Below, piece by piece: positions 2,538 through 63,407 of a stretch of DNA of 64,000 nt (the stretch's first letter is position 1; every line of letters begins with the position of its first letter). The translations under genes and the position numbers were made by a program. Below the pieces are notes generated by a model, which worked only from the letters and a program-made list of their open reading frames with translations, ran no database searches and was not told where the DNA came from. Source of the stretch: a candidate division WOR-3 bacterium (GTDB taxonomy: Bacteria > Hydrothermota > Hydrothermia > LBFQ01 > DSFT01); contig CBFGJN010000001.1 of NCBI GenBank assembly GCA_965649115.1, forward strand, positions 568 to 64,567, read 5' to 3'.

Positions 2538-2554
2538 TTTGAAAATTTTAAAGG
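2538..2554 (-). promoter_or_regulatory. Palindromic promoter-like motif CTTTAAAATTTTCAAA upstream of acpP
   Basis: An instance of the recurrent 16-bp palindrome, about 30 nt upstream of the acpP start. Confidence 0.5.
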
Positions 2555-2787: not shown

Positions 2788-2935
2788 GCCTTGTCTAGTA
2801 ATTCTGAAAATATATTCATTTCTTTATTTTACCCACCCACCTATCCTGAAAATAAAGGTGGAGCCTTATAAATACCCAATTTTTTGCCTTTGGAGGGCAG
2901 AGTTCCCCTTAAATTCCCCCTGAAAATTTATGCTT
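2788..2935 (+). repeat. Degenerate tandem second copy of the repeat
   Basis: GCCTTGTCTAGTAATTCTGAAAA start, then CCCACCCACC and GGAGCCTTATAAATACCC boxes. The 3' end is missing. Confidence 0.6.
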
Positions 2936-2964
2936 TATAATTTTCAACTAACGGGAGGTGGAAC

Positions 2965-8136: not shown

Positions 8137-8152
8137 TTTGAAATTTTAAAGG
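8137..8152 (-). promoter_or_regulatory. Promoter-like palindrome motif immediately upstream of the cysK-like start
   Basis: CACCTTTAAAATTTCAAAACT-ATG in gene orientation. No Shine-Dalgarno sequence is present. Confidence 0.5.
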
Positions 8153-8227: not shown

Positions 8228-9427
8228 TTATCTTTGTTCTTCCAGTTCAATATCAGGAAGATATTGACCGAAACCTTGAACATTTGAAAATAAAAGTTTA
8301 TAATCTCCTGTTCCAAGTTGGTCATAAAATTTAAATTTTTTATTTCCATTATAATAAATCCATATTACATAAGATTTCGTTCCAAGAGCAACTTCTTCCC
8401 TTCTTATATCATCTGGTTGTCCAAATAAAATGTAAATTTTGCCCATATCAGTATATCTTCCTTTTTTGAATGGTGTTGAAAATTTTAAATCTGCTTCAAT
8501 TACTCTTTGTCTAAATATAGGATAGAAAGAACCATCTGGATCTTTAATTTTCCAAAACTTTTCAATCCATAAATTTTTACTTTTTATATCCTTTATATTT
8601 CTAAATTCATTTAATTCACTTGGTGAAGCTATATAATCAATGAAATACCTTATCTCATCGTTGAGAACTATTCCTTCTCTTTGAATGATAAAGTAATGCT
8701 TTAAAACTTTTTTTATGTTTAAACCCAAATCAACAATTTCAAATTTTAAATTGTACTCTCCATCAGATATATTATTTAGTGGAATTTTTCCACTAACTAC
8801 AAGTTGTTCTTTATCCTTTATGATTAATTGAGGGCTTGATATTAAAATTACACTATCATTTTTATCTTCAATGATGTACCTTAAAAAAAGTTTTTGACTA
8901 TCCTTCTTAATATTGTAAATTTCAAAAAAGTAAAAAATTGTATCTTTGAAAATATTTGATGGATTTGGTAAAAATCCAATTCCATTTCTATAAAATGGAC
9001 TATTTAAGCTGTCTTCATAAAGTGAACTTGATAAGACAAGAGAAGAAAAATTCAAATTACTATCTTCTTGAATAATTAAAGGAAATTCAATTTTTGAAGA
9101 CTTACTTTTCGTTTTAACTTCAAATTTTATTGTATATTTCCCAGGTTTAGATAGAATTTCATAACTATCCACCATATAAATAGCATTTTTTGAAATTTTT
9201 TTGTCTTTTTTTTCTTCCATAAGTTTTTGCCTATCCAAGAAAACTCTTAAATATATTTGATAATTTTCAGAAATATCGTTTGGGTTTATTGAATAAACAA
9301 AATTTACAATATAAATATCACCTGATAGTTTAAAGTATATAGGTTCAACATAACCCCTAATAGCTCCATCTAAAACGTAACTTTTATTATCTAATGTAGT
9401 CAGTCCAACTAGAAGGAGCAAGTTCAT
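8228..9427 (-). CDS. GWxTD domain-containing protein
   Basis: C-terminal region contains FWKIKDP … GRYTDMGKIYILFGQPDDI … YVIWIY … LGTGDYKLLF, matching the GWxTD-domain architecture. Confidence 0.7.
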   Translation of the reverse strand: MNLLLLVGLTTLDNKSYVLDGAIRGYVEPIYFKLSGDIYIVNFVYSINPNDISENYQIYLRVFLDRQKLMEEKKDKKISKNAIYMVDSYEILSKPGKYTIKFEVKTKSKSSKIEFPLIIQEDSNLNFSSLVLSSSLYEDSLNSPFYRNGIGFLPNPSNIFKDTIFYFFEIYNIKKDSQKLFLRYIIEDKNDSVILISSPQLIIKDKEQLVVSGKIPLNNISDGEYNLKFEIVDLGLNIKKVLKHYFIIQREGIVLNDEIRYFIDYIASPSELNEFRNIKDIKSKNLWIEKFWKIKDPDGSFYPIFRQRVIEADLKFSTPFKKGRYTDMGKIYILFGQPDDIRREEVALGTKSYVIWIYYNGNKKFKFYDQLGTGDYKLLFSNVQGFGQYLPDIELEEQR

Positions 9428-11237: not shown

Positions 11238-11252
11238 TGAAATTTTAAAGGA
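11238..11252 (-). promoter_or_regulatory. Promoter-like palindrome motif abutting the htpX start (leaderless arrangement)
   Basis: CTATCCTTTAAAATTTCAAT-ATG. TAAAAT lies 6 nt before the A of ATG. Confidence 0.5.
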
Positions 11253-11433: not shown

Positions 11434-11612
11434 TGCTTTGTCCAGTAAATAATGTTAAGTAATTGACAATCAATAACTTATAAAAATCTACTTGAAACTA
11501 TTGATTTTATTGGGAGGAATTAAGGGGGCGAAGTTATAAGCGGAAGGCTTAATTTCAGTGGGGCTAGGAAAACAAAGAAAAATAAATACTTTCAGAATTT
11601 TCAGACACACCA
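11434..11612 (-). repeat. Repeat copy in reverse orientation
   Basis: TGCTTTGTCCAGTAAATAATG … TCAATAACTTATAAAA … GGGGGCGAAG … AAGCGGAAGGCTT … TTTCAGAATTTTCAGACACACCA. Confidence 0.7.
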
Positions 11613-11680
11613 GATAGTAAGGAAAGTTATGCTTTAAAATTTTCAAAGTTAGCTATGCTAACTAAAAAGGAGGTAAGGGT

Positions 11681-18469: not shown

Positions 18470-18483
18470 AGTAAAATTTTAAA

Positions 18484-18737
18484 GCTGTGTCTAATAATTC
18501 TGGAATTATTTATTTTCCTCCTAAAACAAGGATTTCTAATAAATTTTCATAAGTTAAAGCATAATTCTAAAAATATAATCATTCCTATTTAAGGCTTCAC
18601 AATTCATCAACCCTCCATTGTCTTGAAATGCTTGAAGTAATAGGGAATTAAAAAGGCTTAGAACCGAAGGCTCAATTCGTAGGGTGAGTGGTAAAAGTAT
18701 AGAAATAATTATACTCTCAGAATTTTTGGACACAGCA
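18484..18737. repeat. Repeat element with perfect inverted ends (head-to-head arrangement of family termini)
   Basis: Starts GCTGTGTCTAATAATTCTGG and ends CAGAATTTTTGGACACAGCA. The interior has AACCGAAGGCTC and AGGGTGAGTGG boxes in reverse orientation. Confidence 0.7.
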
Positions 18738-18757
18738 AAAACCATTTATTTTTTAGC

Positions 18758-18774
18758 TTTAAAATTTTCAAAGT
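18758..18774 (+). promoter_or_regulatory. Promoter-like palindrome CTTTAAAATTTTCAAAG upstream of serS
   Basis: Ends 4 nt before the serS ATG. No Shine-Dalgarno sequence. Confidence 0.5.
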
Positions 18775-21449: not shown

Positions 21450-21540
21450 ATCAATAGAAAATGTTAAAGATTAGGTAAAAATAGACTTTATTTATTAAGC
21501 AAAACACAAATTTTTCATTTACTTTAAAATTTCAAACTTT

Positions 21541-22485
21541 ATGAAAACAATTGATTATCTTTTGAAATTTGACGGTAAAATTGTTTTAATTGTTCATAAA
21601 AATCCTGACCCTGATTGTATTGGTAGTGCATTAGCACTTTACAAATTTTTAAAAAATTTTAAAAGTGATGTTAAAATTGTTTCAAAAGATGAACCACCTC
21701 AAAACTTGGATTATTTGAAAGGATTTAATGAGATTATTGTTAATAATTTTCAGGATGCTAATTTATATGTCTTAATTGATACACCTAATATAAAAAGAAC
21801 AGGTTTTGATAATTTTAATTTTAATAATAAAAATATAATAAAAATTGACCATCATATTTCTGATGATAAATATAGTGAATTTGATTATGTTAAGATTGAG
21901 GCTCCTTCAACAACATATCTGATTTTAGAACTTATAAGAAATTATAATGAAAATTATTTAGATGAAGATATGGCTGAGTGTATTTTTATAGGACTTGTAG
22001 GTGATACGGGTAGCTTTTCATATTCAAACTTGAAGTTAGCATTTGAAGCAGCTTTGTATTTAGCAAATAAAGGTTATGATTTATCTAAATTTTCAGAGAG
22101 ATATTCAAGAAATAATTCAATAAGTAGATTTTGTTTAATTAGGAAGGCTCTTGAAACATTAAAGCAAGATGGTGAGATTGCTTATATTGTAATAAGAAAG
22201 CATTTTTATGATGATTGTAGTGCTAAAAAATATGAAAATTTTGGAATTGTTGATTATCCACTTTCAATAAAAGGTGTAAAGGTTGCTTTGAAATTTGAAG
22301 AAATAGAAAATAATAAATGGAAAATAAATTTAAGAAGTAAAAAGGAAATAGATGTTCAAAAATTTGCTTCGCTTCATGGTGGTGGAGGACATAAGAATGC
22401 TTCTGCATTTGAAAAGTTAGGAACAGAAGAAGAGGTTATAAATGAGGTTATTTCTGATTTGAAGGAATATCTAAAAAGCTTTTGA
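21541..22485 (+). CDS. DHH-family phosphoesterase (NrnA-like oligoribonuclease/pAp phosphatase)
   Basis: DPDCIGSALAL, KIDHHISDD (DHH) and GGGH motifs. Confidence 0.8.
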   Translation: MKTIDYLLKFDGKIVLIVHKNPDPDCIGSALALYKFLKNFKSDVKIVSKDEPPQNLDYLKGFNEIIVNNFQDANLYVLIDTPNIKRTGFDNFNFNNKNIIKIDHHISDDKYSEFDYVKIEAPSTTYLILELIRNYNENYLDEDMAECIFIGLVGDTGSFSYSNLKLAFEAALYLANKGYDLSKFSERYSRNNSISRFCLIRKALETLKQDGEIAYIVIRKHFYDDCSAKKYENFGIVDYPLSIKGVKVALKFEEIENNKWKINLRSKKEIDVQKFASLHGGGGHKNASAFEKLGTEEEVINEVISDLKEYLKSF

Positions 22486-23590
22486 TTTCATCAATTTCAG
22501 ATTTTTTGTTTACTTTTAAAATTTCTAAAAGTTGATTAAAATCTTTATTGGTTAATTCATATAAGAATTGGATAATAGAAGCAAATCCACTTCCAATTAA
22601 AAATTTTAATTGCTCGTAATCTATATTTTTAAAATTGAGAACCATAAGTTTCAAGTAATAGTCAGCAATTTTCAAATTATAATTCTCATCAAATTGTTCA
22701 GTTATATGTTTTGGTAAATTTTCAAATTTTAGAACTTTATTATCTAAGGATAATGCATATTTTATAGCATTTTCAATTTCGCTAAAATTTCCAAACCAAG
22801 GATAAGTTAAGAATGCTTTATAAAAGTTATCTTCAATCTCAATAAAATCATTTGAAATTTTCCTTAAAAAGTGTTCTAAAATTAGTAATTTTTCTTTATT
22901 GTTTCTTTCACTTATTGAGGGAATATAAATTGAAGGGATTGTCAATAAATTTTGTGGAGGAGATATTTTATCAGTAATAAAAATAATTCTCTGACCACGT
23001 TTATAAATTTCATTTATAGCAAAATTCAAATCATATTCGTTTTCAAATAAATCTATATTTAGTATAATGATTGATTTTTCAGTTTTTTTATTATCAGTTT
23101 TGAATCCAGCATGTTTTTCCTCAATCTCAAAATAATCAATAGCATTTTCAAGAATTGATCTAATAATTGTTAATTTGCCAACACCTCTTTGACCATATAT
23201 TAATATCCAAGGATTATAAGGACTTTTTAGTAATGTTTCAAGTTTTTCGTAAGTCTCCATTGTTTGACCATAATAGCAAACAAATTTAACATTTGCAGGT
23301 TTTAGGCTGTCTAAGTTGTAAAATTTATTATAAAAATCAGAAATTCTTTGTCTTATTGTCTTCTTTGAATAATCATTTAAGAAATTTTTAATTTCATCTT
23401 TATTTTCAAATGACCAATCTACTGATTTAAAATTCGTTTTACCAATTGTAATAGTTAGATAATTTAAGGATAATTCATATAATTTTTTATGGTTGTTAGG
23501 AATTATTACAATATCGGGAATATCAGTTATAGATTTTGCTAATTCGTATTGTTCAATTTTTAGATCCTTTACTAAATTAAGAATTTTCAA
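22448..23590 (-). CDS. AAA+ ATPase resembling the sigma-54 interaction domain but lacking a canonical GAFTGA
   Basis: Walker A GQRGVGKLT. A FGNFSEIENAIKYAL block matches the GNVRELEN sensor-II region of enhancer-binding proteins. The GAFTGA position reads HAGFKTD. Confidence 0.5.
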   Translation of the reverse strand: MKILNLVKDLKIEQYELAKSITDIPDIVIIPNNHKKLYELSLNYLTITIGKTNFKSVDWSFENKDEIKNFLNDYSKKTIRQRISDFYNKFYNLDSLKPANVKFVCYYGQTMETYEKLETLLKSPYNPWILIYGQRGVGKLTIIRSILENAIDYFEIEEKHAGFKTDNKKTEKSIIILNIDLFENEYDLNFAINEIYKRGQRIIFITDKISPPQNLLTIPSIYIPSISERNNKEKLLILEHFLRKISNDFIEIEDNFYKAFLTYPWFGNFSEIENAIKYALSLDNKVLKFENLPKHITEQFDENYNLKIADYYLKLMVLNFKNIDYEQLKFLIGSGFASIIQFLYELTNKDFNQLLEILKVNKKSEIDEIKSFLDIPSNQK

Positions 23591-23597
23591 TAATAAG

Positions 23598-23670
23598 AGC
23601 GAGCGACGGGACTCGAACCCGCAACCCCCAGCTTGGAAGGCTGGCGCTCTACCAATTGAGCTACGCTCGC
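23598..23670 (-). tRNA. tRNA-Gly (anticodon UCC)
   Basis: Reverse complement GCGAGCGTAGCTCAATTGGTAGAGCGCCAGCCTTCCAAGCTGGGGGTTGCGGGTTCGAGTCCCGTCGCTCGCT folds as a cloverleaf. The anticodon loop is CTTCCAA and the discriminator is U. CCA is not encoded. Confidence 0.85.
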
Positions 23671-23674
23671 AAGG

Positions 23675-23689
23675 TTTAAAATTTTAAAG
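23675..23689. promoter_or_regulatory. Perfect palindrome TTTAAAATTTTAAAG shared by divergent tRNA-Gly and truB
   Basis: Lies 5 nt upstream of the tRNA 5' end on the minus strand and 9 nt upstream of the truB ATG on the plus strand. Confidence 0.55.
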
Positions 23690-23698
23690 CATAAGTTT

Positions 23699-24645: not shown

Positions 24646-24828
24646 TGCTTTGTCCAATAAATAATGTTAAATGCCTAATAATCAATAACTTATAAAATTT
24701 TTAAGGAAATTATTGAATTTTAGCCCCCCATAACCGAAAAATGGGTATTTTTAAGCCGAAGGCTTAATTTCAGGGTGGGTGGGAAAAATATAGAAAAATA
24801 AATAATTTCAGAATTATTAGACACAGCA
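24646..24828 (-). repeat. Repeat copy in reverse orientation
   Basis: TGCTTTGTCCAATAAATAATG … AATCAATAACTTATAAAA … GCCCCCCATAACCGAAAAATGGG … AAGCCGAAGGCTT … AGGGTGGGTGGG … CAGAATTATTAGACACAGCA. Confidence 0.8.
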
Positions 24829-24863
24829 TAATTTCAGGAAATTTATCCTTTAAACTTTTCATA

Positions 24864-27857: not shown

Positions 27858-27896
27858 AGTTTGAAAATTTTAAAGCTTTTTAGAGACTTTCAATTG

Positions 27897-28032
27897 CTGT
27901 GTCTAGCCTAAAAATAAGGCTTCGCCTTATAAATGCCCATTTTTCGGCTATGGGAGGGCTTAAATTCAATAATTTCATTAAAAATTTTACAAGTTCTTGA
28001 TCGTCAAGGACTTAACACTATTTATTGGACAA
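27897..28032 (+). repeat. Compact repeat copy. Its 3' end overlaps the C-terminal codons of ORF 27987-28556.
   Basis: GCTGTGTCTAGCC … AAGGCTTCGCCTT (hairpin with swapped stem) … TTTTCGGCTATGGGAGGG … TCAAGGACTTAACACTATTTATTGGACAA. Confidence 0.7.
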
Positions 28033-28556
28033 TTGTATAATTGCAAATTTCTATTTATAATTTCTTTTAAATTTTTCAAAGTTTGACTTTTTTCAAAATT
28101 AGTGAAAATAATTTCTAAAACTTGTTCAAATTTAAATTCAGATTTGAGTTCCTTCAATTTGCCATAATTAGTTCCTTTTATTTCTTTATATATTTCATTT
28201 ACAAAACTTTCAATTGCTTTTGGTTTGACAATCCAAACTTGATGTTTGGGATTTTGTTTCTTTTTAAAAATTATCATTAAATCATTTTCGCATGAATTAT
28301 AATCTTCATGGAGTTTTAATTTTTTAGCGAGTTTATCAAAATGTTGTTCATTATCATAATCAAAAACTGCAATTATTAGTTTATTTTTATTATTATTTTT
28401 AATTCTTTTACAATAAGTTTTTATAACTCCATCATAACCACCTGTTTCTACTTCATCTGAGCAGTGTAAAACATCACAAACAGCATTTAGTTTTAAAAAA
28501 TCTCGTAATTTCTTAAAAAATGAGTAATCATTATTACATTCAACAATAAAAATCAT
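27987..28556 (-). CDS. Small TOPRIM-like protein (DUF4276/DUF4435-like), partner of the AAA_21 ATPase
   Basis: N-terminal IFIVEC (conserved Glu) followed by IIAVFDYDNE (DxD) about 60 aa later, the TOPRIM arrangement. Start overlaps the ATPase stop (ATGA). Confidence 0.5.
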   Translation of the reverse strand: MIFIVECNNDYSFFKKLRDFLKLNAVCDVLHCSDEVETGGYDGVIKTYCKRIKNNNKNKLIIAVFDYDNEQHFDKLAKKLKLHEDYNSCENDLMIIFKKKQNPKHQVWIVKPKAIESFVNEIYKEIKGTNYGKLKELKSEFKFEQVLEIIFTNFEKSQTLKNLKEIINRNLQLYNCPINSVKSLTIKNL

Positions 28557-29647: not shown

Positions 29648-29682
29648 ATTTAAAATTTTAAAGGAAAAAATTTTATTTATCT

Positions 29683-29800
29683 GCTGTGTCTAGGAATTCT
29701 AAAATCATTTATTTTTCACCCTTTAAATAAAGCTTCGCCCTAATAAAATCAATAATCTCAAAAAAGTTTTTATAAGTTTGTGTCTAATAATTAATACCCC
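29683..29800 (+). repeat. Compact or degenerate repeat copy plus a fragment
   Basis: GCTGTGTCTAGGAATTCTAAAATCATTTATTTTTCACCC … AAAGCTTCGCCCT … AAAATCAATAATC, then GTTTGTGTCTAATAATTAATACCCCCC. Confidence 0.6.
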
Positions 29801-29821: not shown

Positions 29822-31219
29822 CTATTTAATTAAAGACCTTACAACTTCCTCATCATCAAAATGATATTTTATTCCCTTGATTTCTTGATATGTTTCATGA
29901 CCTTTTCCTGCAATTAAAATAACATCATCTTCATTTGAAATGGAAATTGCAAGTTCTATTGCTTTTTTTCTGTCTATTTCAATAATGTGAGCCTTATCAA
30001 TACCTTCTTCTATATCTCTAATAATATCCATAGGGTCTTCATCTCTTGGATTATCGCTTGTTAAAATAATAATATCAGCTATTTGTGAAACTTTTCCCAT
30101 AATTGGTCTTTTTAAATGATCTCTATTTCCACCTGCTCCAAAAACCAAAATAATTTTTTTATTATAAACACTTTTTAATGTTTTCAAAACCCTTTCAAGA
30201 GCATCAGGTGTATGAGCATAATCAATAAATACATTTTTTATTTTTTGTAATCTTCCTTTTGGTGGTTTAACGTTTCTTAAAACATCAATAATTTTATTAA
30301 TGTCAAATCCAATTGAATTCAATATGGAAAATGAGCAAAGTAAATTATAAGCATTAAATTCACCTATGAAGTTTTCATTTTCAATAATTTTATCAAAAAC
30401 TTTTATTTTTAAACCATTTTTTGAATTTTCAATAATCTCTCCTTTTATATTAGCATTTTTATAAAATCCATATGTTATTGCTTTACCCTTACAGGCATTT
30501 ATGAAATAAGGACTATTCTCATCATCTAAATTTATAATACCAATAGCATTTTCATTTAACATTCTAAATAATTTGAGTTTTGCTTCTCTGTAATTTTCAA
30601 ATGTTTTGTGAAAATCAAGATGATCTATCGTTAAATTTGTAAAAACTGCTATTTTGAAATTAACATCATCAACTCTATTTAGTGCTAATGAATGACTTGA
30701 AACTTCCATTACAAGAAATTCACCATTATTTTTTAGAATTTCAAACATGTACCTTTGTAAATCTAAGGATTGAGGCGTTGTTAATTTTGGCACTTCTTTT
30801 CTTGAAATTAAATCATTTATTATTGTTCCAAGAAGAGCAGTTTTATGTCCCAATAGATTTAAAGCTTGATAAGTTATATAGGTTGTTGTAGTTTTTCCAT
30901 TCGTTCCTGTAATTCCTATTACAAATAAATTTTTTGAGGGATAATTGTAAAATTTTGCTGAAATTTTTGAAAGTTCAATTCTTGAATTTTCAACAATTAC
31001 TTGATTAACCTTTACATCTAACTTTCTTTCAACAACAATAGCTTTTGCTCCATTATTGATTGCTTCATATACAAAATCATGACCATCAAACTTTTCTCCC
31101 TTTATTGCAAAAAAGACATAATTTTCTTTTACTTCTTTGCTATTATAGGCAATTCCTTCAACTATAAAATCTTCAAAGTTTTCAATTTTATAACCTTCAA
31201 ATAATTCTGAGAACTTCAA
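29822..31219 (-). CDS. murE: UDP-N-acetylmuramoyl-L-alanyl-D-glutamate--2,6-diaminopimelate ligase
   Basis: Mur ligase P-loop GITGTNGKTTTT and the MurE-specific DNPRDEDP (DNPR) motif. Confidence 0.9.
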   Translation of the reverse strand: MKFSELFEGYKIENFEDFIVEGIAYNSKEVKENYVFFAIKGEKFDGHDFVYEAINNGAKAIVVERKLDVKVNQVIVENSRIELSKISAKFYNYPSKNLFVIGITGTNGKTTTTYITYQALNLLGHKTALLGTIINDLISRKEVPKLTTPQSLDLQRYMFEILKNNGEFLVMEVSSHSLALNRVDDVNFKIAVFTNLTIDHLDFHKTFENYREAKLKLFRMLNENAIGIINLDDENSPYFINACKGKAITYGFYKNANIKGEIIENSKNGLKIKVFDKIIENENFIGEFNAYNLLCSFSILNSIGFDINKIIDVLRNVKPPKGRLQKIKNVFIDYAHTPDALERVLKTLKSVYNKKIILVFGAGGNRDHLKRPIMGKVSQIADIIILTSDNPRDEDPMDIIRDIEEGIDKAHIIEIDRKKAIELAISISNEDDVILIAGKGHETYQEIKGIKYHFDDEEVVRSLIK

Positions 31220-31470
31220 AGTTGTTTATAAAGAATTACAAGGATAAGCCCAAAAATTAACATTATTAAAGAAAATGAAAACATTAAGGAAAGTGAGAAA
31301 TTGAAAGCAACTAAATCAACTTTTAAGTTTTCTATTCCAAATCTGATTTTGTGAGTTAAAAATTCACTTGCAGGGTGAGGAGGAAAGTATCTGTTTATTG
31401 ACCAATCTAAGATAGTTCCTATAATAATACCGATTATAAATACAACAAAATAAGATTTTACTGATTTCAA
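31216..31470 (-). CDS. Small integral membrane protein upstream of murE. The start is uncertain.
   Basis: Two TM helices. The longest ORF would begin inside the tRNA-Leu gene, so the real start is probably internal or non-ATG. Confidence 0.4.
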   Translation of the reverse strand: MKSVKSYFVVFIIGIIIGTILDWSINRYFPPHPASEFLTHKIRFGIENLKVDLVAFNFSLSLMFSFSLIMLIFGLILVILYKQL

Positions 31471-31473
31471 AGA

Positions 31474-31559
31474 TGCCCGGGGAGGGACTCGAACCCTCAC
31501 GCCCCTTTCGGGGCCCAGGATTTTAAGTCCTGTGCGTCTTCCGATTCCGCCACCCGGGC
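31474..31559 (-). tRNA. tRNA-Leu (anticodon UAA)
   Basis: Reverse complement GCCCGGGTGGCGGAATCGGAAGACGCACAGGACTTAAAATCCTGGGCCCCGAAAGGGGCGTGAGGGTTCGAGTCCCTCCCCGGGCA. Long variable arm, anticodon loop CTTAAAA, discriminator A. Confidence 0.85.
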
Positions 31560-31562
31560 AAG

Positions 31563-31648
31563 TTTTAAAATTTTAAAGGATAGAGCTTAATTTATGAAAA
31601 ATTTAATGGGGGCGCCAGGAAGCTTAAATATCCTTTAAAATTTTAATT
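31563..31648. promoter_or_regulatory. Divergent pair of promoter-like palindromes (tRNA-Leu on the minus strand, kelch gene on the plus strand)
   Basis: TTTTAAAATTTTAAAGG at 31563-31579 lies 4 nt from the tRNA 5' end. CCTTTAAAATTTTAATT at 31632-31648 abuts the ATG at 31649. Confidence 0.55.
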
Positions 31649-32551: not shown

Positions 32552-33632
32552 TTCAGTTTTAAATTTAATTAATATCTTACTTGGTTTTTTAAATTTGAAA
32601 GTTCTTTTTACTTTTTTAGATTTAAAAACATTAGATAATTTCTTTTTAATTCAGTCAATATCACTTTCAATTTCAAGTATATTTGTTGTTAGTTTTGAAA
32701 CAACTTTTCAAAATTTCATTCCAAAGATGAATGATAAAGATAGTAAAATTTTACTTACAAAATCATTAATTTTGACTTTTTGTTTTTATATAATTTTTTC
32801 CATTTTTAATTTTAAAATTTTTCTTTTTTTCCCCTATGCTATTTTTCCAATTTTTTTAAGTTATCTTTATGCTATTAAAAAATTTACAATCTCTAATATA
32901 ATAAATGCCCTTTCAATTATTTCAACAACTTTTTTCATTTTCCTTATCAAACCAAAAGAAATAAAATTAGTTATTCTTATATATTTCTTCGTTTATTTAG
33001 TGTTTTGCTTATTTTTGATTGTCTTAATAAGACCACCTTTGACTTTTAAAAAAGAAATTATAATTCAAATAAAAGATTATTATAAATTCTCATTCCTTTC
33101 ATCACTAACAAGCCCTATATATAGATATTTAGATAGATTTATTCTTGGATTTTTTGGGAATGTTGGTGATGTTTCAGGATTTGTGCTAATCAGAAGAATT
33201 GATAATTTCATTAGGCAAGTTTTAAATGCACCATTATCAATAGCGCTTGTAAATATAAGTTCAAATCCAAATTATTTCAATAATTTTTTTAGAAAGTATT
33301 TAATTTTTTCATTTTTTCTCTTTATTGTTGAATTAGTTTTAGGATATTTTATTCTTCTCATTATTGGAGGTAAAATTTTTTTAAAATTTTATTTTTCATT
33401 AATTTTGTTCTCTTTTTCATTTCTAATTTCTGCTATTTTTTCAGTTTTCATATTAAAAGAAAGAGTTCTTAACAATCCAAAACCATTTTTCATTTATAAT
33501 ATCTCATTTGTAGTTTTTTACTTTCTTTTCTCTATAATTTTATTTAAATTTTTTAATTATAATGGTATTGCATTAGCTTTTCTTTTAAGCACAGTAATTT
33601 CAAGTTTAATTAGTATGAGCTTTAAAATTTAA
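32541..33632 (+). CDS. Polytopic membrane protein (possible polysaccharide flippase-like)
   Basis: About 10 predicted TM helices. No specific motif. Confidence 0.35.
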   Translation: MFFNSVLNLINILLGFLNLKVLFTFLDLKTLDNFFLIQSISLSISSIFVVSFETTFQNFIPKMNDKDSKILLTKSLILTFCFYIIFSIFNFKIFLFFPYAIFPIFLSYLYAIKKFTISNIINALSIISTTFFIFLIKPKEIKLVILIYFFVYLVFCLFLIVLIRPPLTFKKEIIIQIKDYYKFSFLSSLTSPIYRYLDRFILGFFGNVGDVSGFVLIRRIDNFIRQVLNAPLSIALVNISSNPNYFNNFFRKYLIFSFFLFIVELVLGYFILLIIGGKIFLKFYFSLILFSFSFLISAIFSVFILKERVLNNPKPFFIYNISFVVFYFLFSIILFKFFNYNGIALAFLLSTVISSLISMSFKI

Positions 33633-35115: not shown

Positions 35116-36756
35116 TTATTCTAAATTCAATATCTTTTTTATTATTTCATAGTGATTTTTAATTTCGTTATCATCAGGTTTCTTTTCATAGGCTTGCTTG
35201 ATGTACTTAAAAGCTTCTTCGTATTGACCTTTTTTAAATAATGCCCAGCCATAAGAATCTAATATAGATGCATCGTTTGGATTTAAAGAAATTGCCTTCT
35301 TTATTAATTCAAATCCTTTATTTATGTCTATATTTTCATTAACTAACATATATCCATAATTATTATAAACCATTGAAGCAAAAATGATAAACTGTTTATC
35401 AGTTGTTGTATCAATTATTTCCTGAATGATTTTTATCGTTTCTTCATAATAATATTGTGCTTTTTGGAAATCACCTTCTTTATTATATTCTTCTGCCAAT
35501 TCAAAATATGCTGAATAATCTTCTGGTTTTCTTTTAGTATATTCAATTAGAACCTCCTTTGCTTTTTTTTGAAATCCTATCCTTTTATAAAAATTTGAAA
35601 GTTCTCTATATCTTGATAAATTATCTTTATCATAATCAACTGCAAGTTTATAGTATTTTTCAGCAAGTTTAAGTTTGTTTTCATTTTCAAAGATGTTTGC
35701 CAGTGCAGAGAATAATGAGGGTTTTTTTGATTTAACACCTAATGCTAAATTTTTAGCTTCTTCATATCTCTTATCTTCTACTAACCAATGAATTTTTAAA
35801 ATTTTATAGTCATCTTTGAAATCTAAAATTTTATCAATAACTTTATAAGCTCTTTCCTTCATTTTAAGTTTATAATATGAGTAAGCAATAAAAAAGTCAT
35901 TGTCAGTTGAATAAGATAAACTATTTGCTAATTGTAAATTTTCTATCACTTTTGAGTAAAGACTATCTTGTTTTTTATCCTCTGCTATTTTATAATAAGA
36001 AAAACCCTTATATTTCCAACAATAATCTTCATCAGGGTAAGTCTTTAACAAATCTTCACATATCTCAATAACCCTTTCATATTCTTTATATCCAAATAGC
36101 ATACTCACAAGAAATTTATTAAATTCTTTTTTTTCTTTTAAAGAATAAATATATGCTCTAACACCCGTTAAAATTGCATTTTCTTTATCTCCTTTTTTGT
36201 TATAAATAGATGACAATGCAGCAAGAACTCTAAAATGTAATTCTTGATTTTTTAAAAAAACATCAATTGAACCTTTTATCTCAAAATTACTTAAAATACT
36301 ATCTGCTTTTTTTAGATAAAGTAAAGCTTGGTCATAATTCTTTTTTCTAAATAAAATTATTCCATAATTTACAAGATTTTCTAAATTTGATGTATCCATT
36401 TCATAAAGCTTTTTAAAAATACTATAAGCCTCTTCTATTTTATCCATATTATCTAAAAAAATTGCTTGATATTTGAGAAAGTTAGAATTTTCAGGAAATT
36501 TAAGATATGCTTTTTTTGACCAATTATAACCACCTTTTAAGTCTTTTAAACTTCCATGAATCCTTATTATTAAATCATAAGCTGAACTATCATCCACATA
36601 TTTAATATATTTTTTAAGTAATTTTAAAGCATTTTTGTAATCTTGTTTTTTTAAATAATAATTTGCTAATTCCTTTAAAGCAAATGTATCTTTTGATTTT
36701 ATTCTTTGTTTTAATTTAATTTCTGTTGTATCAATTAATAAAATTAAAAAAATCAC
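35116..36756 (-). CDS. TPR-repeat protein
   Basis: Multiple 34-residue repeats with W/LG/Y/A/F/A/P spacing ([20 protein letters not shown] and similar). Confidence 0.65.
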
Positions 36757-38138
36757 TCAGATGGTTTGTAAAACTTATCAAGGTACTCTTTTGAAATTCT
36801 AACTAATTCGCTTCTTGGTAGTATTGAGAGTAATTTCCAGCCAACTTCAAATGTTTGTTCTATCGTTCTACCTTCAAATCCTTGATTTATCATAACTTTT
36901 TCAAATTCGTCAGCGAATTTAATGTACTTTCTATCTATTTCAGATAAAGCATCTTCTCCTACAATTGCAGCAAGTCTTCTATTATCTTTTCCTCTTGCAT
37001 AAGCGGCAAAAATTTGATCTGCCCATTGTCTGTGATACTTTTCAGTTTTACCTTCACCAATTCCATTATTCATTAATCTTGAAAGTGAAGGTAATATGTC
37101 AATTGGTGGGAATATACCTAATCTATGTAATTCTCTTGATAGAACAATTTGTCCTTCTGTAATATAACCTGTTAAGTCTGGTATTGGATGAGTAATATCA
37201 TCATCAGGCATGGTTAAAATTGGAATTTGTGTAACTGAACCTTTTTTACCTTTAATTCTTCCTGCTCTCTCATATATACTTGCTAAATCGGTGTACATAT
37301 AACCAGGATAACCTCTTCTTCCTGGAACTTCCTCTCTTGCTGAGGAAATTTCTCTCAGTGCTTCACAATAATTTGTAATATCAGTTAAGATAACAAGGAC
37401 ATGGTAATCTAATTCAAATGCAAAGTATTCAGCAACAGTTAGGGCAAATCTTGGTGTTAAAATTCTTTCAATAGTAGGGTCATCAGCTAAGTTTATAAAT
37501 GCTATTAATCTATTACTTGCTCCCATTTCTTCAAATTGTTGTTTAAAATAAGCATATTCTCTTTGGGTTATACCAATTGCACCAAATACAATTAAGAATT
37601 GCTCACCTTCTCCTCTAACGGTAGCATATCTCATAATCATTGCTGCTATTTCATTTGCAGGAAGTCCTGAACCAGAAAATATAGGTAATTTTTGGCCTCT
37701 TACTAATGTGTTAAAACCATCAATAGCAGAAATTCCTGTTTGTATAAAGTCAGATGGTTTTTCCCTTGCGACAGGGTTTATTGGAGAACCTATGATTGGT
37801 AGCTTCTTTTCGGGTATAACTGGACCAAGGTCATCAATTGGTTCTCCTCTTCCATTGAATATTCTTCCAATCATATTTCTACTTACTCCAAAACGAATAA
37901 CATCTTCAACTAATTTTATTTTACATGTTTTAACATCAAGTCCAAGTGTTCCTTCAAGAACTTGAATGACTGCAAATTCTTCTGTAACTTCAAGAACTTG
38001 ACCACTTCTTTTAATACCCGTTTCAGTTTCTATTTCAACTAAAGCTCCATAAGAAAGTTCCTTAGCATTTTTTACTATTAATAGAGGTCCAGATATGTAA
38101 TCAACGGATGTCCATTCTTTAATAGATAAGTCAGTCAT
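36753..38138 (-). CDS. atpB: V/A-type ATP synthase subunit B (non-catalytic)
   Basis: High-confidence B-subunit blocks: [13 protein letters not shown] (degenerate P-loop), [25 protein letters not shown] and PSLSRLM. Confidence 0.9.
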
Positions 38139-38190
38139 ATTGAAAATTTTAAAGGGTAAATAATTTACTTTTCAGCTAAATCGGTTTTTT

Positions 38191-40380: not shown

Positions 40381-40469
40381 TGAAATTTTAAAGGACTTTC
40401 TAAAATATGTGTATAATAAATTTTGAAACTATTCAAGGCGTATTAAAATAGACTTTAAAATTTTCGTCT
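40381..40469. promoter_or_regulatory. Divergent promoter-like palindromes for pstB (minus strand) and coxB (plus strand)
   Basis: GTCCTTTAAAATTTCAG at 40381-40394 in minus orientation and GACTTTAAAATTTTCGTCT at 40451-40469 abutting the coxB ATG. Confidence 0.55.
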
Positions 40470-41423
40470 ATGCTTTGGATAACCAACCTTTTTCCAAAGA
40501 TAGGTTCATCTTATGGCAAAGAAGTAGATAATTTATTTTGGTTTATTTTTTGGATTTCACTATTTTTCTTTTTAATTGTTCAAATTGCTATGATTTACTT
40601 TGTAATTAAGTATAGAAATAAAAAGGAGGAGGAAGTTAGCACTGTTGAAGGAAACAATTTTCTTGAAATAACTTGGACAATTATTCCAACGATTATTCTT
40701 GTTATTATATTCTTTTATGGAGTTTATGTTTTTGATAACTTCCAAAGAAGACCTCCCGCTAATAGTATAGAGATAAAAGTTATTGGTCATCAGTGGTGGT
40801 GGGAATTTCAATATCCAAATGGTTATACTACAAGAGATACACTTATTGTTCCTACTAATAAACCAGTAAAACTCATTATGACATCAACTGATGTAATTCA
40901 TAGTTTTTATGTAAGAAGTTTTAGAATTAAAGAAGATGCTGTTCCTGGAAGATATACTTGGACTTGGTTTAAAGTAGTTGAACCTGGTGTTTATGATATT
41001 CAATGTGCGGAATATTGTGGTTCAAGACATTCAAAAATGATAGGATATATTAAGGCTGTAAATAGAAGTGATTTTGAAACGTGGCTGGCAAGTGTTTCCA
41101 AAGAAACTGATTTATCTTCATTATCTCCTGTTGAGAAAGGTAAGAAATTATCTCAAATTAAAGGTTGTACAAGTTGTCATTCAGTTGATGGTTCTCAACT
41201 TGTAGGACCAACTTGGAAAGGATTATATAACCATGAAGTAGTTGTTTTAGAGAATGGAAAAGAAAAGAAGATATTAGCAGATGAAAATTATTTGAGAGAA
41301 AGCATATTAAATCCAAATGCTAAAATTGTCAAAGGTTTTCAAAATATAATGCCTTCTTATCAGGGTCAATTAAGTGAAGATGAGATTTTAGCAATCATAG
41401 AATATATAAAAAGTTTGAAGTAA
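40470..41423 (+). CDS. coxB: Cytochrome c oxidase subunit II with fused C-terminal cytochrome c (caa3-type)
   Basis: CuA ligands H…CAEYCGSRHSKM and a heme-c CTSCH motif. Confidence 0.9.
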   Translation: MLWITNLFPKIGSSYGKEVDNLFWFIFWISLFFFLIVQIAMIYFVIKYRNKKEEEVSTVEGNNFLEITWTIIPTIILVIIFFYGVYVFDNFQRRPPANSIEIKVIGHQWWWEFQYPNGYTTRDTLIVPTNKPVKLIMTSTDVIHSFYVRSFRIKEDAVPGRYTWTWFKVVEPGVYDIQCAEYCGSRHSKMIGYIKAVNRSDFETWLASVSKETDLSSLSPVEKGKKLSQIKGCTSCHSVDGSQLVGPTWKGLYNHEVVVLENGKEKKILADENYLRESILNPNAKIVKGFQNIMPSYQGQLSEDEILAIIEYIKSLK

Positions 41424-41439
41424 AAGGAGGGATTTAGAT

Positions 41440-43047
41440 ATGCTAAATAAACTTTTAAGCCATGAACCAAGACCTGGGATATTAGGTTGGTTGTTTTCAA
41501 CAGATCATAAGAGAATTGCCCTTCTTTATTTTTGGACAATAATTTTCATTTTCTTAATAGCGGGTATTTTCGCACTCTTAATAAGAACTGAACTTTTCTT
41601 ACCTGGAAAGCAAATTGTTGATTCTGATACTTATAATAGATTATTCACACTACATGGTGTAATGATGGTTTTCTTAGTTATTGTTCCTTTAATACCTGCG
41701 GTCATGGGCAATTATTTAATTCCGCTTATGATAGGAGCAAGAGATGTTGCATTTCCAAAATTAAATCTTTTGAGTTATTGGATATTTTTAACAGGTGTTA
41801 TTATTATCCTATCTTCACTTATATTTGGTGCTATTGATACAGGTTGGACATTTTATACACCATATAGTCTTAAGACAGGCGGTGGTGTTTTATTGGCGCT
41901 ATTTGGTGTTTTTGTTGTTGGTTTTTCATCTATTTTAACAGGTCTGAATTTTGTCGTTACAATTCATAGGTTAAGAGCACCTGGAATGACATGGAGCAAA
42001 TTACCCCTTTTCGTTTGGGCTTTATATGCTACTTCACTAATGAATGTTATTTCAACACCTGTTATTGGTATAACATTATTACTATTAATTTTGGAAAGGG
42101 TTTTTGGTGTTGGCTTCTTTGATCCTACAAAAGGTGGAGATCCTTTAATGTTTCAACATTTCTTTTGGTTTTATTCTCATCCCGTTGTTTATATAATGAT
42201 ACTTCCAGGAATGGGTATAATTTCTGAATTAATTGCAGTTCATTCAAGAAAAAGGATATTTGGTTATTGGGCAATGGCTGCTGCCATTTTTGGAATTGCT
42301 TTTATTGGTTTTATTGTTTGGGCTCATCATATGTTCGTTAGTGGTATGTCTGATGTTGCAAGGTGGGTATTTTCATTCTTAACATTTTTTGTTGCTGTTC
42401 CAACAGGTGTTAAAATTTTTAATTGGGTAGCTACACTTTATAAAGGTTCAATTAGATTAACAACACCTATGTTATTTGCTTTGTCATTCTTATTCCTTTT
42501 TACAATTGGTGGATTAACGGGATTATGGCTTGCTACTATTGCTACTGATGTTTATTTACATGACACATATTTTGTAGTAGCACACTTTCATTATGTAATG
42601 GTTGGAGGTGCTATAACTGCATTCTTTGGTGGATTGTTCCATTGGTTTCCTAAAATTACAGGTAGAATGTACAACGAAAATTGGGGTAGGTTAGGAGCGA
42701 TTCTTATATTTATAGGTTTTAATCTAACATTCTTCCCACAATTTCTCTTGGGTATGCAAGGTATGCCAAGAAGATATTGGGATTATTTACCTGAATTTAC
42801 ATTATTAAATCAAATATCTACAATTGGTGCATATACAATAGCTCTTGGTGTTTTCATTTCACTAATAACATTACTTATAGCTTGGAGAAGAGGACAAAAA
42901 GCTTCTGAAAATCCTTGGGGTGGTGCAACACTTGAATGGAAGACTTCATCTCCACCACCATATTATAATTTTGAAGAAATACCACATGTAGAACACGGAC
43001 CTTATGATTTTGAACATTTATTAAAGAAAGAAAAAGTTTCTCAATAA
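41440..43047 (+). CDS. coxA: Cytochrome c oxidase subunit I
   Basis: 12-TM heme-copper oxidase with WAHHMF and HFHYV blocks. AAGGAGGG RBS. Confidence 0.95.
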   Translation: MLNKLLSHEPRPGILGWLFSTDHKRIALLYFWTIIFIFLIAGIFALLIRTELFLPGKQIVDSDTYNRLFTLHGVMMVFLVIVPLIPAVMGNYLIPLMIGARDVAFPKLNLLSYWIFLTGVIIILSSLIFGAIDTGWTFYTPYSLKTGGGVLLALFGVFVVGFSSILTGLNFVVTIHRLRAPGMTWSKLPLFVWALYATSLMNVISTPVIGITLLLLILERVFGVGFFDPTKGGDPLMFQHFFWFYSHPVVYIMILPGMGIISELIAVHSRKRIFGYWAMAAAIFGIAFIGFIVWAHHMFVSGMSDVARWVFSFLTFFVAVPTGVKIFNWVATLYKGSIRLTTPMLFALSFLFLFTIGGLTGLWLATIATDVYLHDTYFVVAHFHYVMVGGAITAFFGGLFHWFPKITGRMYNENWGRLGAILIFIGFNLTFFPQFLLGMQGMPRRYWDYLPEFTLLNQISTIGAYTIALGVFISLITLLIAWRRGQKASENPWGGATLEWKTSSPPPYYNFEEIPHVEHGPYDFEHLLKKEKVSQ

Positions 43048-47984: not shown

Positions 47985-48527
47985 AATAAGTTATTTTCGA
48001 GTGGGTGGGGAAAATAAAGTTGCTTTGTTCAATAAAAATTTTAAGAAAACTATTGATTTTAGCGGGTTTTTAAGGGGGGCAAAGCCCCCCATAACCGAAA
48101 TAGACACAGCAAATATATTTTGCTTTGTCCAGTAATTATTGTCAATCACTTGATAATCAATAACTTATAAAATTTTTAGGGAAATTATAGATTTCATTAG
48201 GGGGATTTTAGGGGGGCGAAGTCCCCCACAGCCTAAAAATGGGCATTTTAAAGCCGAAAGCTTTTATTTAGGGTGAGCGAGGAAAAATAGTAAAATAAAT
48301 AATTTTAGAATTATTAGACACAGCAAATATATTTAACTTTGTCTAGTAATTGGTGTTAAGTTATTGATAATCAATAATTTGTGAAAACTTAATAAAATTA
48401 TTGTCTTTATGGGGGTTTTAAGGGGGGCGAAGCCCCCCATAGCCGAAATATGGGTATTTTAAAGCCGAAGGCTTAATTTTAGGGTGGGTGGGAAAAATAA
48501 ATGGTTTTAGAATTACTAGACACAGCA
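47985..48527 (-). repeat. Array of three reverse-orientation repeat units plus a leading fragment, separated by a constant AATATATTT(T/A) spacer
   Basis: Units approximately 48011-48111, 48122-48325 and 48336-48527. Each starts (T)GCTTTGTYYARTAA and ends AGACACAGCA. The GGGGGGC(A/G)AAG(C/T)CCCCC hairpin is present in all. Confidence 0.8.
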
Positions 48528-48561
48528 AATATATTTATCAATTCTACTTTAAAATTTCATT

Positions 48562-51992: not shown

Positions 51993-52054
51993 AGTATGAA
52001 ATTTTAAACGAGGTAAAAGATGAAAAATTATTTTAATGAGACTTTTGATTTCAT

Positions 52055-52180
52055 GGGGGGATTGAAGGGGGTGGTAGCCCCCTACTGCTGAAAAATGTGT
52101 ATTTTAAAGGTTCCACCTTGGTGGATGGGTAAAATAAAGAAATAATCTATATTTTAGAATTACTAGACAAAGAAAATAAT
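52055..52180 (-). repeat. Degenerate repeat copy in reverse orientation
   Basis: GGGGGGATTGAAGGGGGTGGTAGCCCCC … GGTGGATGGG … TTTAGAATTACTAGACAAAG. Confidence 0.55.
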
Positions 52181-52212
52181 TTTAAATAATTTTCCTTAAA
52201 ATTTTAAGTTTA

Positions 52213-53100: not shown

Positions 53101-53130
53101 TAATAAGAGGCAATGCTTTAAAATTAACAT

Positions 53131-58660: not shown

Positions 58661-58699
58661 AATATATAAAATTTTAAAGTTTAATGTTGATTTTTTTGT

Positions 58700-58903
58700 G
58701 CCTTGTCCAATAATTCTGGAAATATAATTATTTCTATATTTTCCCACCCGCCCTAAAAATAAGCCTTCGGCTTTAAAAAACCCCATCTTTTGCTATGGGG
58801 GGCTCTGCCCCCCATAAAGTGCCCCCATTATTTCAAGTATTTCAATTAATACTTAATAAGTAGTTGATTATCAATCACTTAGCAATAATTATTGGACAAA
58901 GCA
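58700..58903 (+). repeat. Full-length repeat unit
   Basis: GCCTTGTCCAATAATTCTGG … CCCACCCGCCC … AAGCCTTCGGCTT … GGGGGGCTCTGCCCCCC … TTGATTATCAATCA … AATTATTGGACAAAGCA. Preceded by ATTTTTTTGT. Confidence 0.8.
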
Positions 58904-58913
58904 AGAGTTAGTT

Positions 58914-59116
58914 GCTGTGTCTAAGAATTCTGAAAGTATTTATTTTTCTTATTTTGCCCACCCGCCCTGAAATAAAGGCTACGCCTTTAAAATGCCCATT
59001 TTTCGGCTGTGGGGGGCTCCGCCCCCCATTAGATCCCCCATAAAATCAATAGTTTTATTGAAATTTTCGTAAGTCATTGATAATCAAGGATTTAACAATA
59101 ATTATTGGACAAAGCA
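58914..59116 (+). repeat. Full-length repeat unit (tandem to the previous one)
   Basis: GCTGTGTCTAAGAATTCTGAAA … CCCACCCGCCC … AAAGGCTACGCCTTT (stem-swapped hairpin) … GGGGGGCTCCGCCCCCC … AATTATTGGACAAAGCA. Followed by ATTTTTTTGT. Confidence 0.8.
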
Positions 59117-59207: not shown

Positions 59208-59225
59208 GCTTTAAAATTTTCAAAC
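59208..59225 (+). promoter_or_regulatory. Promoter-like palindrome GCTTTAAAATTTTCAAAC immediately upstream of the riboswitch
   Basis: The riboswitch P1 stem begins 1-2 nt after the motif. Confidence 0.55.
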
Positions 59226-59226
59226 A

Positions 59227-59366
59227 TGCAGGCGACAGGGAAGAGGGGTGAAATTCCCCCGCTGTCCCAGCAGCCGTGATGGGCATAAAAATTGCCCCTG
59301 AAAGCCACTGCCGAAAGGTGGGAAGGCTCAGGGGTTTTTAGCCCTAAGCCGGAAGACCTGCCTGCA
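59227..59366 (+). promoter_or_regulatory. Cobalamin (AdoCbl) riboswitch
   Basis: P1 TGCAGGC…GCCTGCA. Conserved AGGGAAGAGGGGTGAAATTCCCC, GCCACTG and GGGAAGGC elements. B12 box AAGCCGGAAGACCTGCC. A downstream hairpin CCCTTCCTG…CAGGAAGGGG can sequester the GGAGG RBS. Confidence 0.85.
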
Positions 59367-63089: not shown

Positions 63090-63372
63090 ATTGGGGGTAG
63101 GGTTTTAAGGGAGTCCCCCCATAGCCTAAAAATGGACATTTAAAAGATGGATTTTTTAAAGCTGTGGGCTTAATTTTTAGGATAGGTAGGCAAAATATAG
63201 AAATACAATAACTTATAAATTTTTAAGGAAATTGTTAATTTATTGGGGGAAATTAAGGGGGGCGAAGCCCCCCACTGCCGAAAAATGGGTATTTTTAAGC
63301 CGAAGGCTTAATTATAGGGTGGGTGGGCAAAATATAGAAATGAATATATTTTTAGAATTATTGGACACAGCA
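63090..63372 (-). repeat. Two reverse-orientation repeat units
   Basis: GGGAGTCCCCCCATAGCCTAAAAATGG … and GGGGGGCGAAGCCCCCCACTGCCGAAAAATGGGTATTTTTAAGCCGAAGGCTTAATTATAGGGTGGGTGGGC … TTTTTAGAATTATTGGACACAGCA. Confidence 0.75.
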
Positions 63373-63407
63373 TTTGAACCTTTCTTATGCCCTTTAAAAT
63401 TTAAATT

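Follow-up and report, generated by a model that had tools for sequence, protein, structure and literature searches.

In a 64-kb stretch of DNA (the window) from a hot-spring bacterium, which its SerS assigns to the candidate division WOR-3 (class 'Hydrothermia'; Caldifarciminota in the NCBI taxonomy), the 11-mer CTTTAAAATTT stands a few bases ahead of about 25 genes, two transfer RNAs (tRNAs) and one riboswitch. It is probable, at roughly 80 %, that this 11-mer represents positions −15 to −5 of a housekeeping sigma-70-type promoter whose placement would leave most first genes with near-leaderless transcripts. The site at issue, GTTTAAAATTTTAAAG (23674..23689, both strands), lies within the 28-nt spacer 23671–23698, which runs from the 5′ end of tRNA-Gly to the truB ATG. 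A first-pass annotation had read the motif as a core promoter with an embedded −10 element, an interpretation that comparative and positional evidence supports in part. The window, whose GC (guanine plus cytosine) content is ~26 % and whose proteins have identical counterparts in assembly GCA_039803085.1, was analysed together with ~100 kb of related loci.

Frequency and direction of the motif

Exact copies of the 11-mer were counted on both strands, and their expected number was taken from first-order Markov (Markov-1) simulations. The window holds 20 copies against 1.84 expected and a simulation maximum of 6, an approximately 11-fold enrichment. Coding sequence makes up 91 % of the window, yet only one of the 20 copies lies wholly within it and 19 lie outside (P ~5e-19). 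All 20 face a downstream unit, and these units comprise 15 open reading frames (ORFs), two tRNAs, one cobalamin riboswitch and two genes with a short leader and the sequence AAGGAGG. The ATG of the 15 ORFs follows the 11-mer after 4–11 nt; where an exact copy has an ATG no more than 12 nt downstream, that ATG opens an ORF of at least 100 aa in 14 cases and, in the remaining one, a lipoprotein-like ORF of 61 aa situated before lnt. Every position listed in the first-pass annotation has a copy with at most one mismatch to CTTTAAAATTT within a few nt. The listed sites are real, but the list was incomplete, the sites at 11632+, 33620+, 24848+, 52194+, 53116+, 21469− and 2933+ having been missed.

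In a genome of 26 % GC, A/T-rich and stop-rich words might accumulate by chance before the first ATG of an ORF. TAAAAT alone is expected approximately every 400 nt per strand at the composition of the window, and a generic two-hexamer sigma-70 scan returned 128 sites compared with 101 in shuffles, and most of the 128 fell within genes and away from the motif. Chance nevertheless has a negligible probability and is refuted by the shuffles and by natural control loci. The AT-rich control loci from other phyla (L019, L025, L031, L039 and L043) contain 0–1 copies of the 11-mer per 6–21 kb; the 11-fold enrichment, the exclusion from coding sequence and the presence of the motif in a relative of 52 % GC also speak against chance. 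The outcome of the generic scan suggests that such scans are nearly uninformative at 26 % GC, and hints at the reason for a longer −10 box. A terminator scan of the window found five terminators against 4.6 expected.

The element had been described as a conserved 16-bp palindrome, CTTTAAAATTTTMAAG, and this description had to be abandoned. The 16-mer has no exact match in the window, the 38 strand-hits that it gives (3.1 expected) being obtained with up to two mismatches, and the real unit is the directional 11-mer. C occupies position 1 at 17 of the 21 sites picked without regard to flanks, but position 16, read in gene direction, is G in none of 20 sites, from which it follows that the motif is directional. 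Its self-complementary part is confined to the centre AAAATTTT, the source of the partial symmetry.

This symmetry could still be taken as the mark of a true 16-bp palindrome, either bound by a dimeric regulator or acting as a symmetric promoter that fires both ways everywhere, a reading that we regard as unlikely. The self-complementary centre speaks for it, as do positions 12–15, which fit the palindrome in 65–75 % of the sites, and the single copy at 23674–23689 that serves both tRNA-Gly and truB; bidirectional promoters with −10 symmetry are also common in bacteria according to the summary of Warman et al. (2021) in PMC10268837. In addition to the absence of exact 16-mers and of a G at position 16, however, C1, the most informative flank base, has no mirror counterpart, every one of the 20 exact copies shares the orientation of the unit downstream of it, and the reverse hexamer is GAAAAT in seven of 20 sites. 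The likeness to the symmetric promoters of that summary extends to an A/T-rich, partly self-complementary −10 region and to one two-way site, whilst the starts described there are 18 bp apart with reciprocal −7T/−11A; TAAAAT on both strands of the WOR-3 motif predicts starts 15 bp apart, and conservation of the motif is asymmetric. The directional promoter also agrees better with the divergent gene pairs, which were found as the first-pass annotation had them: tRNA-Gly/truB is served by one copy, but pstB/coxB and tRNA-Leu/kelch each use two separate copies. TAAAAT on both strands combined with a unit on either side was found solely at 23674–23689, and bidirectional firing is plausibly limited to this tRNA-Gly/truB site, the others being one-sided.

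With TAAAAT numbered −12 to −7, the flanks were examined in an unbiased set of 21 ORFs chosen solely by the presence of TAnAAT 4–14 nt upstream. The most frequent bases were C at −15 (17/21; 1.6 bits), T at −14 (18/21), T at −13 (19/21), T at −6 (20/21) and T at −5 (18/21). No −35 element or other upstream signal was detected in these 21 ORFs between −52 and −17, where no position exceeded 0.33 bit.

Start codons, spacing and translation signals

The gene names given earlier were mostly supported by Pfam, namely cysK-like PALP, M48/htpX, serS, DHH, truB, qor-like ADH, AAA_21, kelch, V/A-ATPase B, ABC ATPase, COX2, epimerase, GT2-deacetylase and lnt; the name of the final gene (63408), which has no Pfam hit, was not. 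The motif-adjacent start codons (ATG in 20 of 21) are sound because their ORFs contain no earlier one, because Pfam domains begin at residues 1–27 of the products (AAA_15 at 1, epimerase at 4, PALP at 4, COX2_TM at 8) and because the N-terminus of SerS, M1-L2-D3, is invariant in seven WOR-3 orthologues. At the GT2-deacetylase gene, the start predicted from the motif is the 58660 ATG (465 aa), in agreement with the public gene call and the domain coordinates. The longest-ORF start at 58786 (507 aa) was rejected, as it is contradicted by the motif, by the public call of 465 aa and by the domain coordinates.

For the 21 motif-adjacent protein-coding genes we determined the gap N, counted from the final T of TAAAAT to the start codon. 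It is 6 nt in five genes, 7 nt in five, 8 nt in two, 9 nt in three, 10 nt in three, and 11, 13 and 16 nt in one gene each, so that 12 of the 21 have gaps of 6–8 nt, six have gaps of 9–10 nt and three have gaps of at least 11 nt. The proposal that TAAAAT, lying 6–10 nt from the ATG, fits a −10 element thus agrees with 18 of the 21 genes and would identify the hexamer as the −10 box. Sigma-70 holoenzymes usually initiate 6–9 nt past the hexamer. By this rule 12 of the 21 mRNAs could have the A of the ATG as their first base, six would have leaders of ~1–4 nt and three would have longer leaders that lack a Shine–Dalgarno (SD) sequence.

SD sequences were defined as matches of 6 nt or more. None of the 21 motif-adjacent genes has one, compared with 10 of the 38 other genes in the window (Fisher P = 0.01), in accordance with the earlier statement that genes next to the motif lack SD sequences. 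The companion statement, that internal genes carry a strong AAGGAGG, applies to approximately ten genes but does not extend to the many internal genes that have neither an SD sequence nor the motif and show instead overlapping stop and start codons in ATGA-type junctions. Judged by motif placement, 21 of the ~25 protein-coding transcription units of the window would be of the leaderless type. The remainder comprise three units with the motif 21–38 nt before an SD-led start (2553−, 2933+ and 11632+) and one led by the riboswitch.

The motif lies 4–14 nt before start codons, in the usual zone of a ribosome-binding site, and might for this reason be a non-SD signal for translation initiation in leadered mRNAs, similar to 'group B' of the Bacteroidota, with the true promoters further upstream. 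WOR-3 has traits resembling those of the Fibrobacterota–Chlorobiota–Bacteroidota (FCB) group, such as Por_Secre_tail domains, and ~90 % of FCB genomes belong to group B (PMC6028130). This explanation is nonetheless improbable. A translation signal is ruled out by the two tRNAs and the riboswitch aptamer, untranslated RNAs that have the motif ahead of them, and by three genes with an AAGGAGG of their own, from which the motif stands 21–38 nt upstream; furthermore, most internal genes lack it, in GC-rich relatives it is reduced to a TAnAAT −10 signature, and no further conserved promoter-like signal was found upstream of it.

The preferred interpretation of the 11-mer as a promoter would work as follows. 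TAAAAT would be the −10 hexamer, with C−15, T−14, T−13, T−6 and T−5 as additional, lineage-specific determinants and no −35 element. For the majority of first genes, RNA polymerase would initiate at the A of the ATG or 1–4 nt ahead of it; mRNAs starting at or just before the ATG would have no room for an SD sequence, and the ribosome would bind the 5′-terminal AUG by the leaderless route of translation. Genes within operons would use AAGGAGG or overlapping stop and start codons. Ahead of tRNAs (10 nt) and of the riboswitch (~7 nt), the same promoter would leave hardly any 5′ extension. We infer the start positions, the sigma factor involved and the mode of ribosome loading from the DNA sequence.

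Relatives and known promoter systems

In the same assembly, the 9 kb that follow the end of the window (L044) contain five exact copies, all five just upstream of and facing called genes, which encode BioY, ferredoxin, GyrA, an extracytoplasmic function (ECF) sigma factor and a 773-aa protein whose start, 19 nt downstream, is uncertain. The AT-rich relatives L001–L003 and L046–L048, in which SerS is 82–93 % identical to that of the window, carry [CG][CT]TTAAAATTT with the end of the hexamer 6–11 nt before the ATG, and C−15 occurs in 15 of 17 promoters of relatives. The arrangement of the tRNA-Gly/truB site recurs in L001 at 8723–8738. Where orthologous promoters of the window and L001 were compared, conservation starts at about −15 and sequence further upstream cannot be aligned.

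In the more distant relative L049 (52 % GC; SerS 69 % identical), CCTTTAAAATTT, CCATTAAAATT and CCCTTTAAAATT occur ahead of genes. Because the flanks are kept at this composition, they are likely to be lineage-specific recognition bases and not a by-product of AT-richness. Four WOR-3 loci were among the 80 returned by a metagenome scan with a SerS profile. In the WOR-3 loci of 55–57 % GC (L004–L006 and L027, of which L005 and L006 are near-duplicates), a TAnAAT ending 5–9 nt ahead of the start is present in 25 of 58 ORFs, and just two further occurrences fall in other parts of the 40 upstream nt; in control loci of other phyla three of 107 have it at 5–9 nt. The motif is here reduced to TAnAAT with invariant T−12, A−11 and T−7. 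The tRNA-Leu of L005 (9867–9950) is preceded by TAGAAT at 9 nt from the 5′ end, and the corresponding distance is 10 nt for both tRNAs of the window. Leaderless placement of the −10 element would thus appear to be a phylum-wide trait.

The GC-rich promoters have a flank of their own. C is present at −18, 6 nt before the hexamer, in 18 of 18 TAnAAT promoters of L004, L005 and L027, and T at −19 in 11 of these 18; examples are found upstream of L005 10001 and of L027 688–2493. A register that would align the C of the motif with this C−18 was rejected, because it would turn the hexamer into AATTTT and move the start into the ORF.

Several of these observations weigh against the proposed promoter. 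The flank is not uniform in the phylum, C being invariant at −18 in the 55–57 % GC relatives and standing at −15 in the AT-rich lineage and L049. The C−15/T−14/T−13 flank is unlike the classical extended −10 element (TGn). Nine of the 21 gaps measure at least 9 nt, so that some mRNAs are predicted to have SD-less leaders of 2–9 nt, and the sample consisted of the window and shorter loci, not of whole genomes.

Amongst known systems, the nearest is group C of GeneMarkS-2, which has a Pribnow box 6–8 nt from the start and SD sequences on internal genes; it comprises mainly Actinobacteria and Deinococcus-Thermus, with 25–50 % of operons of the leaderless type (PMC6028130). Members such as M. tuberculosis and Deinococcus deserti share with the window a TANNNT −10 element near the start, SD-less first genes and the lack of a strong −35 element. 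The phylum is new, however, and 21 of ~25 units in the window would be of the leaderless type compared with 25–50 % in group C; in addition, the conserved block comprises 11 nt instead of 6, owing to C−15, T−14, T−13, T−6 and T−5, and gaps of 9–10 nt are frequent. The system is best read as the putative group C design, with its own −10 dialect, in a further phylum.

Extended −10 promoters (TGn) are similar in that the −35 element is dispensable and extra conserved bases lie just upstream of the hexamer, but they have T−15 and G−14, whereas the WOR-3 motif has C−15 (17/21), T−14 (18/21) and T−13, plus T−6 and T−5 downstream. The sigma-A consensus of the Bacteroidota is −33 TTTG / −7 TAnnTTTG. 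Group B and the Bacteroidota sigma-A system resemble WOR-3 in an FCB-related lineage, in first genes that lack SD sequences and in an atypical promoter consensus, but the window has neither TAnnTTTG nor −33 TTTG, the motif is missing from most internal genes and AAGGAGG is used as SD sequence. Archaeal leaderless expression from TATA and B recognition elements (group D, TATA ~22–26 nt upstream) was rejected, since the hexamer ends 6–10 nt from the start and MurE, Lnt and SpoIID are bacterial proteins. No paper linking WOR-3 to leaderless transcripts was found in the literature searched, and the paper on the WOR-3 isolate strain sy37 does not mention promoters.

Probable promoters of the window and the repeat beside them

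At the tRNA-Gly/truB site, the tRNA-Gly promoter is CTTTAAAATTT at 23689–23679 on the − strand, its hexamer ending 10 nt from the 5′ end of the tRNA; the truB promoter, GTTTAAAATTT, lies on the + strand in 23674..23689, with TAAAAT 16 nt before the ATG at 23699. The tRNA-Leu gene, together with a downstream small ORF and murE, has an 11-mer at 31568..31578 (−) and a 5′ end 10 nt after TAAAAT. With hexamers 9–10 nt before the tRNAs at 23597–23670, 31472–31560 and L005 9867–9950, the implied 5′ leaders would be ~2–4 nt. Leaderless tRNAs are known from Nanoarchaeum equitans, and the placement in WOR-3 recalls them. An AAA+ gene (22448–23590, −) has a TTG start that follows the 3′ end of tRNA-Gly (23597–23670) by 6 nt, and the small ORF and murE follow tRNA-Leu (31219–31472, −), in each case without a motif or SD sequence of their own. 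These genes may be co-transcribed with the tRNAs and freed in near-leaderless form by tRNA processing.

Exact 11-mers on the + strand precede serS (18757..18767; ATG 18779, N = 13), the DHH/DHHA1 gene (21522..21532; N = 10), the kelch-repeat gene (31633..31643; N = 7), coxB, which encodes COX2 with cytochrome c (40453..40463; N = 8), the 61-aa lipoprotein-like ORF with lnt (48547..48557; N = 6) and the last gene (63392..63402; ATG 63408, N = 7; publicly called at 496 aa). On the same strand, the 11-mer at 33620..33630 overlaps the end of an upstream ORF and would act as an internal promoter for a 148-aa ORF (N = 6). On the − strand they precede the cysK-like PALP gene (8141..8151; N = 9), the htpX-like M48 peptidase gene (11240..11250; N = 6), where the sequence is identical in L001 and L046, the 481-aa ORF (18474..18484; ATG 18469, N = 6), the qor-like Zn-dehydrogenase gene (27865..27875; N = 9), the AAA_15/AAA_21 ATPase gene (29653..29663; N = 7), the gene for the B subunit of a V/A-type ATPase (38144..38154; N = 7), the pstB-like ABC ATPase gene (40383..40393; N = 9) and the GT2-deacetylase gene (58669..58679; ATG 58660, N = 10).

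One-mismatch copies were found before a 188-aa ORF (CTTTAACATTT, 21459..21469, −; N = 11), where the sequence is conserved in L001, the glycine dehydrogenase subunit gene, which has a GTG start (CTTTAAACTTT, 24848..24858, +; N = 7), the epimerase gene (GTTTAAAATTT, 51999..52009, −; N = 8), the FecCD permease gene (CCTTAAAATTT, 52194..52204, +; N = 10) and the gene of a SpoIID-domain protein (CTTTAAAATTA, 53116..53126, +; N = 6). Three genes are leadered. The acyl-carrier-protein ORF (2270–2509) has an 11-mer at 2543..2553 (−) and starts 33 nt downstream behind AAGGAGG, the cupredoxin ORF (11681) has one at 11632..11642 (+) and starts 38 nt downstream behind AAGGAGGT, and an SD-led 95-aa ORF has a one-mismatch copy, CTTTATAATTT, at 2933..2943 (+), 21 nt before the ORF.

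The 11-mer of the cobalamin riboswitch (59209..59219, +) predicts a start at ~59224, 2 nt before P1 (AUGCAGGC, from 59226). The 5′ strand of P1 covers 59226–59233, and its 3′ strand, GCCUGCAUG (59359–59368), includes the start codon (ATG, 59366) of the gene that follows, which encodes a TonB-dependent receptor plug domain and has no clear SD sequence. The riboswitch may thus exert control by direct occlusion of the start codon. The V/A-type ATPase B subunit (36753–38138) and COX2 with fused cytochrome c (40470–43047) occur together in this lineage of 26 % GC; the paper on strain sy37 assigned the combination of V/A-ATPase and cytochrome c oxidase only to the isolate's own group.

Many of these promoters have a repeat beside them. 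AGAATTATTRGACACAGC, found 19 times where 0.12 occurrences were expected, forms the 'A-end' terminal inverted repeat of a non-coding repeat of ~205 bp that is present in ~25 copies or fragments, makes up ~7 % of the window and contains GC-rich hairpins and a CCCACCCACCC box. Its ends are GCTGTGTCyAATAATTCT and AATTATTGGACAAAGC. Copies in the window lie at 2573–2777, 2788–2928, 11435–11611, 18484–18736, 24647–24827, 27896–28033, 48122–48324, 48336–48526, 58700–58903, 58914–59116 and 63206–63371, in addition to fragments, and copies in relatives at L001 6354–6553, L047 1550–1725 and L048 9577–9787. The repeat is thus present in same-genus loci; it was absent from L002, L003 and the 55–57 % GC WOR-3 loci, and L049 was not searched. 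No parent insertion sequence with a transposase was seen in the window, no dedicated search having been made. Two readings of the repeat were rejected. AGAATTATTRGACACAGC is not a −35 or UP element, as 27 nt separate its TAGACA from the hexamer and the box is the end of the repeat, and a structured RNA was not supported (no Rfam match; RNAalifold −10.5 kcal/mol with three covarying pairs).

The repeat meets the promoters at a fixed distance. In the window and same-genus loci, 13 of 19 intact A ends lie 19–20 nt from C−15 of a co-oriented promoter and four abut the next copy; amongst A ends outside arrays the proportion is 13 of 15, with constant orientation, and only one of 17 B ends is near a promoter. 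The A end at serS (AGAATTTTTGGACACAGC, 18719..18736, +) lies 20 nt before C−15 of the serS promoter, and others at 19–20 nt are 2573–2590(−), 11594–11611(+), 24810–24827(+), 27896–27908(−), 29683–29700(−), 48509–48526(+), 52156–52173(+), 58700–58717(−) and 63354–63371(+). In four arrays the 10–11 nt beside each A end are duplicated exactly, whilst the copies are merely 63–77 % identical, which fits repeated insertion into one site (~−35 to −25) with a 10–11-bp duplication. No clean target-site duplication was found around single copies. The serS promoter is filled by the repeat in L047 and empty in L046 and L001.

The repeat resembles Correia elements and other promoter-associated MITEs (miniature transposable elements with inverted repeats) in being ~200 bp long, non-coding, multicopy and bounded by terminal inverted repeats, with a position upstream of genes (PMC10969869). 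Certain MITEs carry promoters (PMC10969869), and together with the 13 of 19 intact A ends at 19–20 nt from a motif copy this might indicate that the repeat brought the motif as an outward-facing mobile promoter, so that the motif would not be native. Such an origin is very improbable. The 19–20 nt that separate repeat end and motif are not conserved, about half of the promoters have no nearby repeat, the motif is present in L002 and L003, from which the repeat is absent, and in L049, which was not searched for it, and the serS motif occurs with the repeat in L047 and without it in L046 and L001. Unlike Correia elements, moreover, the repeat does not itself hold the promoter and abuts it at 19–20 nt, always by the same end and with 10–11-bp duplications.

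It is possible, and we put this forward tentatively, that these −35-less promoters of leaderless mRNAs serve as landing pads into which the repeat inserts by its A end at ~−35 to −25, its terminus coming to lie 19–20 nt from C−15. The docking pattern may reflect transposition guided by the motif or by bound RNA polymerase, or co-option of the repeat end as an upstream element. If it reflects targeting, it would be an unusual bacterial case of promoter-directed transposition. Taken with tRNAs and a riboswitch that would have nearly no 5′ extension, the landing-pad reading would portray a phylum with its expression signals condensed into one 11-bp box.

For annotation, the promoter reading means that gene finders should treat WOR-3 as a phylum of the leaderless 'group C' kind; at the GT2-deacetylase gene, for example, the longest ORF gives a wrong start. 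It would extend pervasive leaderless expression to an uncultured FCB-affiliated lineage, whose neighbours mostly have non-SD leaders, and would provide a natural example of a long, −35-independent −10 box, in which the C−15 and C−18 dialects could show how sigma-A recognition shifts with composition. A WOR-3 isolate, strain sy37, exists, so that the prediction is testable.

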